Origin: an uncultured Clostridia bacterium
GTDB lineage: Bacteria > Bacillota > Clostridia > TANB77 > CAG-508
Length of the DNA stretch: 64,000 nucleotides
Assembly (NCBI GenBank): GCA_947581805.1
Contig: CANPVM010000003.1
Location: 137,775-201,774, forward strand
Direction of reading: 5' to 3'
The notes beneath the pieces were generated by a model. That model saw nothing but the letters and a program-made list of their open reading frames with translations. It made no database searches and was not told the DNA's origin. Of the stretch, positions 31,045 through 34,591 are shown piece by piece (positions within the stretch are counted from its first letter, which is position 1; each line of letters opens with the position of its first letter). The position numbers and the translations under genes are program-made.

Positions 31045-31639
31045 TTAACTTGGTGGCCTTATAATGACACGATAAACAACAGATTGTGTTTCTCCATTTA
31101 CATTATAATTAATAGTAATATTTATTTTTACTTCCTTTAAAACTTTAGTTGCTGTGATAGGAATATAAGCGCTAAACATAGCAATTACATTATTATCTAC
31201 ACTTGTTTGAAAAGATGGGGTAATTGTTCCAATGGCATCACTATCTCCTTTTATTGATATATCTACGATTCCATCTGTAGCCGCATACCCTGTTTTGTTC
31301 GTATAATAGAATGTAAAAATTCCAGTTGTAGGATAATCTGTGTTGTCTGTCTCTAAAGTTGTTATTAATGTATTATTTATGACTTCATTCGACACTACCT
31401 TATAGCCTGGTATAACAACAGATGCAAAATCAATAGGAATTTCAATATTCATTGAACTATGCTCGTCTTGATCATCATCTTGTTGTTCTTTTTTTCCAGT
31501 AACTGTTCCATGAATGTATAACGTTCTAGATAGAAGAGAATATCCAAAACCGCATGGATATTATGATTATGAATAGTATCATAAAAATTATTGATACGTT
31601 CCATTGCATTTTTCTTTTTCTTTTATATTTTTGATACAT
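31045..31639 (-). pseudogene. TasA/camelysin-like paralog, frame-disrupted: signal-peptide segment (31528..31639) in a different frame from the mature domain (31045..31452); junction at in-frame CGG 31550..31552
   Basis: Skipping the C of ATG-CGG-T joins MYQKYKRKRKMQWNVSIIFMILFIIIISM to GFGYSLLSRTLYIHGTVTG..., which aligns with the SVGYAAFSAVLNIEGTATG signal-peptide end of the paralog at 34022..34591. Confidence 0.55.
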
Positions 31640-31653
31640 AATTACCTCTATCT

Positions 31654-32706
31654 TTACTTAGTTAATCTATAACGATATATTGTAGTTCCACTCATAACAC
31701 TAAACCATGCTTCCTCTTCTTCTGTATCAAAGTAATACAATATTGGCTTAAACAATTCTTCTGAAACTTTTACAATTTCTCCGAATTCTTTTACATAAAC
31801 AATATCTTTTTCTTGACTTGTTGGTTTTGTACTTACCTGTACAATCTTATCTTGGCAAAGTTTTAATATTCTATTTAGTTCTTGTCTAAACTCATTCTTA
31901 ACACGATTTGCTGTTTTTGATTTTGTTGTATACTTAAATAAAGCAATTGCAAGAATAATGCATATAATATCAATTAGAATAACTAGCATATTATAATTAT
32001 CATCTACATTATATTCTTTTGAGATATATTGTTTATCTTCCTTATTATTATCTCCTAAAATTTTCATAGTCTTGTCTGCTATATTCATTTGAACATTAGA
32101 AGTATAATTATTTATTACTTGCTTTCCTTCTATATTAGTTACTGTTTCAAGTTTAAACTCTACAATATAAGTAGCATCTACTGCCATTCCCATTTCTTGC
32201 TTAAAATCATTTAATAGTGCATTCTTTTTTCTTAAGTCTAAAGATAATTTTTCATTAATCTTAATTTCATTTCCATGACTCTGCATATTTTCCTTTTCTA
32301 ATATGTTTTCTTCCTCATCCCATATCTTCTGTTCTTCTCCATTTTTGGTATAAATAACTTGCAATCTACCTGTTACAGAGTAGTGATAAGAAATATCCGA
32401 TTCTTTATCTGCCATATATTGATAATTTAAATTTAAATCAATGTTATCAATTAAACTTGTAACATATGCCGTTGTATTTTTTTCTATTGCAGAGTCTGTA
32501 ATATATCTATTATTAATTAAATTTACTTTATATTGATAATTAAATTTATTTGTATATTGGTAAATTTCCTGTGTTTGTGTAACGATATTTCCTTGCGATA
32601 AATTTAGGATTAAATTGCCAAGAGCGCAAATAAAAATAGTAATAGACACAGCAATGTATGCATATTTTGTTGACTTACGTAATCTATTTTTTTGTTTTAC
32701 TCTCAC
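31654..32706 (-). CDS. Bitopic membrane protein (350 aa; two TM segments flanking an Asn/Tyr/Gln-rich extracytoplasmic domain), possible accessory/anchoring factor of the TasA-like operon
   Basis: ORF within the operon between SipW-fusion and TasA paralog; TM at ~18-38 and ~258-278. Confidence 0.5.
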   Translation of the reverse strand: MRVKQKNRLRKSTKYAYIAVSITIFICALGNLILNLSQGNIVTQTQEIYQYTNKFNYQYKVNLINNRYITDSAIEKNTTAYVTSLIDNIDLNLNYQYMADKESDISYHYSVTGRLQVIYTKNGEEQKIWDEEENILEKENMQSHGNEIKINEKLSLDLRKKNALLNDFKQEMGMAVDATYIVEFKLETVTNIEGKQVINNYTSNVQMNIADKTMKILGDNNKEDKQYISKEYNVDDNYNMLVILIDIICIILAIALFKYTTKSKTANRVKNEFRQELNRILKLCQDKIVQVSTKPTSQEKDIVYVKEFGEIVKVSEELFKPILYYFDTEEEEAWFSVMSGTTIYRYRLTK

Positions 32707-32741
32707 AATTTCTCCCTCCTTTTATCTTTTGATATCAATTT

Positions 32742-33923
32742 TTATTTACCAGTTTCAACTCCTATATTATCTTCGCTTATTTGCAAAATATGTAACCATA
32801 TAGCAGGATACCCTAAATATTTTATTTTAAAAATTACTTTTCCAACTAATTGTTCTTCTTTAACTTCATTTACATCTGGTGCACCATTATTATCTCCTTT
32901 GGTAATAAAATAATACTTACCGTTTCTTTGCTTTTTTTCAATGATTCTATGTATGATACTATAGCCTTTAATTTTATATTCTATAATATCTCCAACATTA
33001 ACATCATTTGGCTTACATTCTTTTATAATTGCAATATCACCTACACATAGTTCCTTTTCCATACTACCTGTTGCTATTGATACTGGTTTAATTGGAAATA
33101 TTCCTATTGCAAACCATATTGCTAAAATTACTAGTATAGCCAAAGGAATTATATTTTTTGGATTCGAATTTATTATGTTTTCCCTTGACCTGAAAATATT
33201 CAATTTGTTTTTAACAAATTGAATGTACAAAAATAAAATAACAGGTATTGTTATATCTATAATGGCTGTCATAATCCAAGGTGAATTAGGAAGAATTGGT
33301 GACACCCAAAAATATAAATTGGTTAGTATTTGATATAGCATAGCAGATACATAATTACTATATATCGCCATATATGAAAATACCATATTTTTTGCAATAT
33401 TTGGTAACACGGTTTGTATAATATATTCTACTAATCCAAACATTGTAAAATTTCTACCTATAAATCTAGTAAATTCAAAATCAATTATTATATAAACAAC
33501 TGATATTAAGATTGCTATTTTTGATTTATCTTTATCATATACATTGTTTATTAATTTATATCTTACATATTCTTTTGCTATTAATACAGTTCCTGTTATC
33601 CATATATTGTGTATTAAACCTTTTAGAGTGGCACTATATGGATTCTTTCCAAAGCTTACCACTAAACCAGATAACATATATATAAGAATAAATGCTAAAG
33701 AGGCTATCACTGTATATTGTATAATCGGTTTTTGAAGTTTTTTATTTTCAATATTTTTGCCTAAAATTAAGTATAAAAATATGGCAAGCATGAGCCATAC
33801 AACAGGATTAATTATGTATAAATAGATTATGTTTATTTCTTTTACTAACTTTAAATTTCCTAAAAGACCAAACAATAACATAAGAATTATTATAACGATT
33901 GTGGCCACTTTTGATTTTTGCAT
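32742..33923 (-). CDS. SipW-type (archaeal/ER-type, S26B) signal peptidase domain fused to a ~270-aa N-terminal polytopic membrane domain
   Basis: C-terminal 120 aa: ..ATGSMEKEL..GDII.Y......IHRII...ITKGDNN (Ser/His catalytic pattern of SipW/Sec11); N-terminal 7-8 predicted TM helices; flanked by TasA-like genes. Confidence 0.7.
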   Translation of the reverse strand: MQKSKVATIVIIILMLLFGLLGNLKLVKEINIIYLYIINPVVWLMLAIFLYLILGKNIENKKLQKPIIQYTVIASLAFILIYMLSGLVVSFGKNPYSATLKGLIHNIWITGTVLIAKEYVRYKLINNVYDKDKSKIAILISVVYIIIDFEFTRFIGRNFTMFGLVEYIIQTVLPNIAKNMVFSYMAIYSNYVSAMLYQILTNLYFWVSPILPNSPWIMTAIIDITIPVILFLYIQFVKNKLNIFRSRENIINSNPKNIIPLAILVILAIWFAIGIFPIKPVSIATGSMEKELCVGDIAIIKECKPNDVNVGDIIEYKIKGYSIIHRIIEKKQRNGKYYFITKGDNNGAPDVNEVKEEQLVGKVIFKIKYLGYPAIWLHILQISEDNIGVETGK

Positions 33924-34021
33924 TGAACTTCCTCTTTATTTCATTTTTGAATGAATTAGGATAAAATAAAATGAGACAAGGACATATGCTCTGTGTCTAT
34001 GTCCTTGCTGATTATTTACTA

Positions 34022-34591
34022 TTATTGTGCTGAATCTTCGTGTGTTGCTGTTCCAGTGAATTCTGTTGTATCTTGTTCATATGTGTATTTGATACTAAAT
34101 GTGTTGTTATCTAATTTTTCTGCTGTTGATTCTGGATCCCATTTAATAACAAATTTTGCTGTACATGTACCACCATTAGCTGCTAATTTTTCGTTTTCCT
34201 TTGGTCCTTCATTAGCTTGTTCTACGATTAAATCTTCATTGTTATTTGTGATTTCGAAGCCTGTTAATTTAGCTGGTAAGTTACCACTGTTTTCAACAAC
34301 TGCCTCTAATAAAACACCGTCACCAGGATATGCTAAGTTTACACTTACAGTCATTGTGTCGTTTGTAGTAGTCGTTGTTGATAATGATGTTTCACCACTA
34401 TGAGTTGTATCTTCGCTTGAACCATCTGCTTGTAAGAATTTACCTTCTTTAAAATGTACATCCCAACCTGCTGTTCCTGTTGCAGTACCTTCAATGTTTA
34501 ATACTGCACTGAATGCGGCATATCCAACAGATAGTGCTAAAAGAATTACAATTAGCGCAATGATTAGATAATTTCTTTTTGTCTTTTTCAT
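34022..34591 (-). CDS. TasA/camelysin (peptidase M73)-family secreted protein with SipW-cognate-class signal peptide
   Basis: MKKTKRNYLIIALIVILLALSVGYAAFSA signal; VSVNLAYPGDGVLLEAVVENSGNLPAKL matches TasA VNLSNLKPGD..F.F.N.GSL core motif. Confidence 0.7.
   Translation of the reverse strand: MKKTKRNYLIIALIVILLALSVGYAAFSAVLNIEGTATGTAGWDVHFKEGKFLQADGSSEDTTHSGETSLSTTTTTNDTMTVSVNLAYPGDGVLLEAVVENSGNLPAKLTGFEITNNNEDLIVEQANEGPKENEKLAANGGTCTAKFVIKWDPESTAEKLDNNTFSIKYTYEQDTTEFTGTATHEDSAQ

Follow-up and report, generated by a model that had tools for sequence, protein, structure and literature searches.

A probable TasA-superfamily fibre module of the AbpX type, with an enlarged signal peptidase and a DUF5305 helper, in uncultured Clostridia

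Introduction

Among the described fibre systems of the TasA superfamily, the one closest to the locus considered here is that of AbpX, the fibre subunit of the hyperthermophile Pyrodictium abyssi (PDB 9sj2 and 9rhp; 10.64898/2026.01.04.697558; PMC12518558). Cryo-electron microscopy of AbpX has the N-terminal strand of each protomer packed into the groove of the next; the N-terminal extension of the monomer is reported as disordered, and a glutamate at position 4 (E4), the acidity of which is described as strongly conserved, bridges Ca2+ (10.64898/2026.01.04.697558). Polymerisation of AbpX is chaperone-free, with Ca2+ as its trigger. P. abyssi has just abpX and a peptidase gene; loci with AbpX homologues in Bacillota and Chloroflexota comprise a type I signal peptidase (SPase I) with ten helices, a DUF5305 protein, AbpX-like minor subunits and tip proteins, and the homologues have a pI of about 4.0 and ∼15% acidic residues (10.64898/2026.01.04.697558). 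In this study, we analyse a 64,000-nt stretch of DNA from an uncultured Clostridia bacterium (GCA_947581805.1, contig CANPVM010000003.1, positions 137,775 to 201,774 of the forward strand; hereafter the window) and describe a four-gene locus on its minus strand. We understand this locus, with a probability of about 0.8, as a bacterial fibre module of the AbpX type, within the TasA superfamily, that is equipped with a DUF5305 helper and an enlarged signal peptidase of its own.

Other described systems share parts of this organisation. In the tapA-sipW-tasA operon of Bacillus subtilis, the subunit TasA is known from the literature to build its fibre by strand donation (PDB 8aur). The haloarchaeal Tafi (Tat-fimbriae) system employs the pilins TafA and TafE, which are donor-strand fibre subunits; the peptidase TafD is required for their processing, and the DUF5305 protein TafG is proposed to assist it (PMC11821415, PMC12337348). 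A role of DUF5305 proteins as signal-peptidase accessories has been put forward for archaeal Tafi and AbpX loci alike (PMC11821415, PMC12337348, 10.64898/2026.01.04.697558). In the sipW-bsaA locus of Clostridium perfringens, SipW is required for export of BsaA, and a read-through terminator follows bsaA (PMC7395162); BsaA is reported, in a later preprint (PMC11580942), to form intermolecular isopeptide bonds.

Results

Locus architecture

The locus consists of four successive minus-strand open reading frames (ORFs), encoding a 189-aa fibre subunit precursor (34022..34591), a 393-aa signal peptidase (32742..33923) and a 350-aa DUF5305 protein (31654..32706), followed by a frame-broken minor or tip subunit gene (31045..31639). 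A preliminary description of this stretch, made from the letters and a list of their ORFs, had read the same four genes, including the broken one, and its reading is confirmed. Co-transcription is plausible, since the genes share a strand, lie 98, 35 and 14 nt apart and keep their order among relatives. By scanning a genome collection with an alignment of the peptidase, we obtained 37 related loci, of which the 35 having a full-length peptidase gene are the basis of the locus counts out of 35, the neighbouring ORFs being assigned by hidden Markov model (HMM) searches. The loci come almost entirely from uncultured gut or rumen Clostridia (e.g., Clostridium sp. CAG:452). The major subunit gene is found directly upstream of the peptidase gene in 33 of the 35 and the DUF5305 gene directly downstream of it in 34, and the order of major subunit, peptidase, DUF5305 protein and variable minor or tip subunit is kept in about 35 loci. 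Two related loci (L026:6532-7821 and L043:6853-7990) have two major-like subunit genes in a row, and another (L025:7210-10261 and 13647-16484) carries two complete modules in tandem.

The major subunit

Scans of Pfam and NCBIfam returned no match at all for the 189-aa protein. The TasA/camelysin family Peptidase_M73 (PF12389), present in all 120 listed TasA homologues, gave no match to it at E<=0.1 and matched just 2 of 46 relatives, at E 0.036. Close homologues number 144, in uncultured Clostridia, and a full HMMER scan of a representative library extends the family to 8583 clusters (50% identity) at E<=1e-3. When a family profile built from 46 homologues was run against all PDB sequences, the top match was AbpX of P. 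abyssi (9sj2_C, E 2.1e-6) and a second AbpX structure was likewise retrieved (9rhp_A, E 5.3e-5); TasA, AbpA, the 0406 thread and CanA were not among the matches at E<=10. The alignment starts at residue 2 of AbpX (W2), which is paired with F27 of the 189-aa protein. Residues 26-189, the predicted mature part, have a pI of 4.21 and consist of Asp and Glu to 16.5%.

The match to the TasA core claimed in the preliminary description is real at the level of motifs. Alignment of the family with 28 TasA sequences by hhalign (52.6%, E 1.4e-4) covers 82 columns, all of them in the signal peptide or the first strands, among them AAF and PGD-x8-EN-x-G-x-L; there is no Peptidase_M73 match to go with it. 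The profile match to AbpX, the absence of Peptidase_M73 and the 52.6% of the TasA alignment together place the 189-aa protein, on grounds of sequence comparison, on the AbpX side of the TasA superfamily rather than with TasA/camelysin proper. The operon is therefore TasA-like in the sense of a superfamily relationship and of its fibre-subunit, peptidase and accessory genes, not in the narrower sense of TasA or camelysin that had been proposed.

A monomer model calculated with AlphaFold2 (mean predicted local distance difference test, pLDDT, 90.3) is all-beta, with a signal helix and an unstructured stretch (residues 23-44) ahead of an eight-strand beta-sandwich. Comparison of a predicted structure with the TasA fold had been put forward as a check of the original proposal. 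In a Foldseek search of the PDB, the TasA fibre 8aur_A did come out as the best match (probability 0.99, E 3e-3), ahead of the Sulfolobus 0406 thread and of chaperone-usher pilins, though the scores are weak for all of these. Five residues of the protein (C143, W151, Y171, Q173, H184) are invariant in the 46 homologues; they include a conserved C-terminal tail of the form Y-x-Q-D..T..F....H, which lies outside the part aligned with AbpX.

Signal peptide and predicted donor strand

The signal peptide (residues 1-25; 34517..34591, minus strand) ends in G23-Y24-A25, all three residues being invariant in the 46 aligned homologues. Among 31 major subunits taken from the related loci, Gly at position -3, Tyr at -2 and Ala or Ser at -1 are found in every sequence (31/31 each). 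Positions -3 and -1 hold small residues, in keeping with cleavage of type I, and the mature N-terminus of AbpX aligns at the same point; the predicted cut lies between A25 and A26. The residues that follow, A26-A37 (AFSAVLNIEGTA; 34481..34516, minus strand), are the predicted donor strand, assigned from its register match to AbpX. The predicted mature start of the major subunits has the consensus A1, F2, S3, x4, T5, L6, T7, I8, N9, G10, T11, A12, with F2, L6, I/V/L8, G10 and A/V12 each conserved in 31/31, and F2/L6/I8/G10/A12 are in register with W2/L6/L8/A10/I12 of AbpX. At position 4, the 31 relatives have Ser (10), Asp (6), Thr (6), Gln (5) or Ala (4), and a non-acidic residue here implies that the Ca2+ bridge of AbpX may be absent.

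A motif at the end of the signal peptides had been noted earlier as common to the two substrates. The string originally written, beginning G(Y/F)GY, literally fits neither protein; in the form GY-x2-[FL]-S-x2-L-x-I-x-GT-x-TG the motif is shared by the 189-aa protein and the product of the fourth gene, and a six-frame translation of the window contains it exactly twice, both times in this cluster.

The signal peptidase

The 393-aa protein is a Sec11/archaeal-type SPase I behind an extra membrane domain of 8-9 helices. It scores 97 bits against the archaeal-type signal peptidase model TIGR02228 (cut-off 51.85), and its profile finds human SEC11A/C in the PDB at E 2.5e-17, whereas the bacterial P-type (Escherichia coli-type) enzymes appear only at E>1. 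The SipW fusion of the preliminary description stands insofar as a peptidase is fused to a membrane domain, yet the protein remains far below the SipW equivalog NF046067 (56.1 bits, cut-off 190). None of the catalytic residues S287, H325 and D344 varies among 32 clostridial sequences, nor in an archaeal homologue. The multi-helix domain occupies about residues 1-255. Family-averaged hydropathy has eight clear segments before the catalytic domain, weaker hydrophobicity at 174-213 and a short C-terminal segment, which is consistent with ten helices as counted from hydropathy; the parity of that count fits an internal N-terminus and an external catalytic domain. Searches of Pfam, NCBIfam and PDB gave no match for the membrane domain. 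A homologue from a Desulfurococcales archaeon is 29% identical over residues 67-378, and E118, R121, P174, Y197, P209 and P212 of the membrane domain are invariant from Clostridia to that archaeon. Assignment of the domain as a CPBP/Abi protease or an exosortase-like protein was dropped, for the spacing E118-x2-R121 is unlike EExxxR and neither His nor Cys is invariant in the domain.

In a relative with 67% identity (L007:1185-2355), the peptidase is split at the junction of membrane and catalytic domains into ORFs of 278 and 119 aa, and the first two helices are missing from the called peptidase gene of another locus (L008); frame breaks may recur in the fibre module.

The DUF5305 protein

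The 350-aa protein had been described as a bitopic membrane protein of no recognisable family and as a candidate anchoring or nucleation factor, and none of these attributes is retained. It matches DUF5305 (PF17231) with 61.8 bits against a cut-off of 29 (E 8e-17), over the full length of the profile (positions 1-217/217). Having two hydrophobic segments (16-36 and 239-259), it is not bitopic, and its predicted topology places the N-terminus inside, followed by helix 16-36, an external domain of ∼200 aa, helix 239-259 and a cytoplasmic domain of ∼90 aa. An analogy of DUF5305 to subunits of the eukaryotic signal peptidase complex has been suggested; the DUF5305 profile has no match in the PDB. 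We propose, by analogy with the role suggested in the literature for the archaeal systems, that the protein serves as an accessory subunit of the signal peptidase. Physical partnership of the two is supported by an uncultured Desulfurococcales archaeon in which a single 750-aa ORF (L045:135-2387) joins the multi-helix domain, the Sec11-type peptidase and DUF5305. The contig stops just upstream of this fused ORF, and any subunit genes would lie beyond its end.

The frame-broken fourth gene

The fourth gene has its ATG at 31639, preceded by an AGAGG ribosome-binding site, and is open for 37 codons (MYQKYKRKRKMQWNVSIIFMILFIIIISMRFW...) up to a stop at 31526-31528; it carries on in the next frame (...GFGYSLLSRTLYIHGTVTG...), including a 135-aa ORF (31045-31452) that is without match in scans of Pfam and NCBIfam. 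The gene length of 595 nt is a multiple of three plus one. One extra T in a run of four (31546..31549, minus strand), located by frame reading and family alignment, breaks the frame. When one T is removed there, the sequence reads ...IISMRFGYSLLSRTLYIHGTVTG, the family match is restored, and the resulting 197-aa protein aligns end to end with intact homologues. The family of the fourth gene aligns with that of the major subunit by hhalign at 97.9% (E 5.5e-13, 156 columns), so that the paralogy of the two substrates, claimed from the start, is borne out: judged from its sequence, the fourth gene is a true paralog of the major subunit gene and shares its motif for cleavage and donor strand.

The identical frameshift, base for base, is present in two separately assembled metagenome contigs (L002, L004), which match the window at 100% identity along 5-9 kb. 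A sequencing error is consequently unlikely as the cause, even if these assemblies may stem from the same strain. Programmed +1 frameshifting at UUU-U is likewise unlikely, there being neither an upstream Shine-Dalgarno-like stimulator nor a slow codon, and the homologues in 31 of the 35 related loci are single ORFs. A gene at the fourth position in these 31 loci encodes 176-766 aa, mostly with the same N-terminal motif, and the long variants bear Flg_new surface repeats, which fits a role as tip or adhesin. With the fourth gene inactivated in the window, any fibre made would be one of the major subunit only; such a fibre is still conceivable, given that P. abyssi has only abpX and the peptidase gene.

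Intergenic hairpin

The 98-nt gap between the major subunit and peptidase genes holds an 11-bp stem-loop followed by a U-rich tract (33976..34008, minus strand), with a folding energy of -16.3 kcal/mol (z -4.05) that none of 200 shuffled sequences attained. Similar hairpins of dissimilar sequence occur at the same place in ∼24/28 related loci. The element is probably a partial terminator or an mRNA stabiliser. Its analogy to the read-through terminator after bsaA suggests a surplus of major-subunit transcript, with partial read-through into the genes downstream. A scan of the whole window at the Rfam gathering thresholds found no RNA families.

Divergent partner gene

On the opposite strand, a gene for a 338-aa protein (34815..35831, plus strand) is a conserved neighbour of the module, passed over in the preliminary description: 28 of the 35 related loci have a homologue next to the major subunit gene, directly upstream and in divergent orientation, and, in the reverse check, distant homologues adjoined the module in 3/3 cases. 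Beyond these five genes, the flanks vary from locus to locus. The protein is acidic (pI 4.99) and, at a maximum Kyte-Doolittle (KD) hydropathy of 1.08, has no membrane segment. Its AlphaFold2 model (pLDDT 80 overall, about 90 for the C-domain) comprises a helical bundle (about 18-164), a disordered linker and an alpha/beta domain (205-338). Its 490 homologues include none with a reliable Pfam domain; comparison with the PDB returned coiled-coil noise only from the sequence profile and helical-bundle noise only from Foldseek. It is predicted to be a conserved cytoplasmic partner of unassigned fold.

Discussion

Based on the collective evidence, the locus is best compared with the AbpX loci. The two have in common sequence kinship of the subunits (E 2e-6) and their acidic character, an amphipathic strand at the N-terminus, which keeps the same register and has position 2 occupied by an aromatic, and the accompaniment by a Sec11-type SPase I of about ten helices, a DUF5305 protein and an AbpX-like minor or tip subunit. 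They differ in that position 4 is Ala in the window protein and acidic in just 6/31 of the clade, that a conserved divergent cytoplasmic gene is added here, that it is found here in uncultured Clostridia of gut and rumen and that the minor subunit gene is broken in this strain. Furthermore, none of the genes for cell-wall anchors (surface-layer homology, SLH, or LPXTG), sortase, histidine kinase or cyclic di-GMP (c-di-GMP) is conserved in this clade.

Resemblance to the tapA-sipW-tasA operon is of a more general nature. Each encodes a secreted beta-sandwich subunit beside an ER/archaeal-type peptidase, and the subunits share the AAF-type N-terminus and the PGD..EN.G.L core motif. The window locus, by contrast, has no Peptidase_M73 match and no TapA, places the subunit gene first, contains a DUF5305 protein and possesses a peptidase that falls short of the SipW equivalog and is enlarged by the domain of 8-9 helices. 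The layout is indeed distinct from that of Bacillus, as had been noticed; it is, however, already described for AbpX loci of Bacillota (10.64898/2026.01.04.697558). With the Tafi system, the locus shares a dedicated peptidase having a DUF5305 partner. The Tafi subunits, unlike the protein here, use Tat signals, TafD is a four-helix enzyme with a second domain of another kind, and no Tafi structure was among the PDB-profile or Foldseek matches of the window protein. The sipW-bsaA system, finally, provides a clostridial precedent of an extracellular matrix polymer dependent on a SipW-type peptidase of its own, and its read-through terminator after the subunit gene is analogous to the hairpin described above; its peptidase gene comes first, and it has neither DUF5305 nor a multi-helix extension.

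From these parallels, a mechanism can be outlined. The major subunit, normally together with the variable minor or tip subunit, would be exported by its N-terminal signal peptide, and the Sec11/archaeal-type peptidase, sitting on its 8-9-helix domain and aided by the two-helix DUF5305 protein, would cleave after the invariant G-Y-A to release the amphipathic N-terminal strand A-F-S-x-T-L-T-I-N-G-T-A. The freed strand would then enter the open groove in the beta-sandwich of the next subunit (donor-strand complementation), and strand exchange of this kind could build thin acidic extracellular fibrils, probably a biofilm or aggregation matrix. The hairpin after the major subunit gene probably keeps the major transcript above that of the downstream genes. 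The variable fourth protein would be the minor or tip subunit, the gene of which is inactivated here by one inserted base. Gene content, family assignments, paralogy, conservation of gene order, catalytic residues and motif conservation are established directly; we infer the cleavage site, polymerisation by strand donation as in TasA and the Tafi subunits, the accessory role of DUF5305 and the function in a matrix.

Several observations weigh against the interpretation as a fibre module. The HMMER match to AbpX involves the N-terminal half only (profile positions 27-115), the Foldseek scores are weak (E 3e-3, template modelling score 0.33), partly because the model contains the signal helix, and the hhalign probability to TasA is only 52.6%. 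The Ca ligands of AbpX other than E4 are not clearly conserved in the AbpX alignment, and E4 itself is replaced by Ala in the window protein, with acidic residues in just 6 of the 31 relatives. The clade has no conserved cell-wall anchor, and in this strain the minor subunit gene is frame-broken. On the structural side, the analysis of the 189-aa protein covered a prediction of the monomer. Matches to CARDB (generic) or to the Ig-like domain NPCBM_assoc in 11/46 family members mean that a beta-sandwich is by itself no proof of a fibre. These matches, together with the weak fold similarity and the lost E4, could be taken to indicate that the 189-aa protein and its paralog are non-polymerising secreted or surface beta-sandwich proteins (CARDB-like adhesins or wall-associated proteins) that need a dedicated peptidase, with the conserved N-terminal motif a recognition and cleavage signal alone. 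We consider this unlikely because the strict alternation of F2, L6, I8, G10 and A12 runs 12 residues past the predicted cleavage site, which a cleavage signal would not need, and because of the sequence kinship with AbpX, a solved donor-strand fibre subunit. The unstructured N-terminal extension of the monomer model, as reported for AbpX, and the combination of a major subunit with variable minor or tip paralogs, typical of fibre operons, also speak for polymerisation.

A placement of the same machinery on the spore surface, considered in the preliminary description next to a role in the biofilm matrix, would alter just location and timing. Nothing specific points to it apart from the fact that TasA was first described as spore-associated, as reflected in source names such as "spore coat-associated protein N"; sporulation genes are linked to the module neither in the window nor in the 35 relatives, the flanks of which differ, and this option appears very improbable. 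Still further from the evidence is a genuine TasA/camelysin (Peptidase_M73) operon, that is, a diverged orthologue of tapA-sipW-tasA. The AAF after the signal peptide, the PGD-x8-EN-x-G-x-L motif, the hhalign E-value of 1.4e-4 and the top rank of the TasA fibre in Foldseek would agree with it, but this reading is already largely refuted by the lack of PF12389 in the window protein (with 2/46 relatives at E 0.036), by the 52.6% over just 82 columns, by a PDB profile search that finds AbpX and not TasA (E<=10), by the peptidase that fails the SipW equivalog (56 vs 190 bits) and bears an extra membrane domain, and by DUF5305 in the stead of TapA. The class B sortase gene immediately downstream (30205-31017; TIGR03064, 158.9 bits), accompanied by a TPKTG-anchored 404-aa protein, could suggest a Gram-positive pilus assembled or anchored by sortase, all the more as sortases and LPXTG anchors are found near some bacterial abpX loci (10.64898/2026.01.04.697558) and one related locus, L048, has a sortase gene after the fourth gene. 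Neither subunit has a C-terminal sorting signal, however, the sortase gene is on the opposite strand, a sortase gene within 8 kb was found in 0/35 related loci and the subunit profile finds no match in the 404-aa protein, making this the least credible of the alternatives.

The AbpX-type module is thus most likely a real and conserved system of known kind, the general architecture of which was published in January 2026 (10.64898/2026.01.04.697558); it is counted as such since it has the AbpX features of that preprint except the acidic position 4. The text of the preprint makes no mention of this large clade of gut and rumen Clostridia, of the adjacent acidic cytoplasmic protein, of the conserved hairpin or of the absence of anchor, sortase and c-di-GMP genes in the clade (10.64898/2026.01.04.697558), and the additions made here are modest. 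The subunit family is very large, and the members found in this study are annotated as hypothetical or unnamed. TasA-like matrix fibres in gut and rumen Clostridia could shape aggregation, attachment to mucus or particles and biofilm formation. The locus sets a mesophilic example from gut bacteria beside the AbpX of a hyperthermophile, and it offers a compact conserved gene set for studying the roles of the enlarged peptidase and of DUF5305, that of the cytoplasmic partner, and whether strand exchange can dispense with a Ca2+ bridge. More tentatively, and on balance doubtfully, the module might be an assembly machine of five parts and not just a subunit with its peptidase. The membrane domain of the peptidase, the DUF5305 protein and the 338-aa protein would then make up a trans-membrane platform, which may couple signal-peptide cleavage to an ordered, Ca-independent strand-exchange polymerisation or may govern the latter from the cytoplasm. 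If true, the machine would represent a new type of pilus assembly apparatus, widespread in gut Clostridia.

Neighbouring genes and further observations

In L048:1-2032, three genes lie downstream of the module on the same strand. The first two encode a sortase and a SipW-like peptidase that is short (169 aa); the product of the third has a classical signal of the TasA/camelysin type (…AWLTKTSSISNTFTVGTF), and the gene set implies that two distinct TasA-superfamily systems are adjacent there. In the window, the class B sortase gene (plus strand) adjoins the gene of the 404-aa surface protein (28795-30009, plus strand), which has TPKTG near its end, followed by a hydrophobic helix and then a basic tail; both converge on the fibre module and look like a separate sortase-substrate cassette outside of it. 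A second sortase gene is located at 40721-41530 (minus strand).

Upstream of the module, a penicillin-binding protein (PBP) gene of a cell-division cluster (PBP_dimer, Transpeptidase and PASTA; 35882-38072, minus strand) is split into ORFs of 505 and 218 aa by a one-base insertion near 36560-36575, where the conserved stretch VEL/GTIAFGQ changes frame. The same split is present in four other assemblies, and with it a second conserved gene is frame-broken, at a distance of less than 6 kb from the fibre gene that is broken. Across the window, the GC content is 25-38% and the GC skew is negative over most of the length, which fits a low-GC Clostridia genome.

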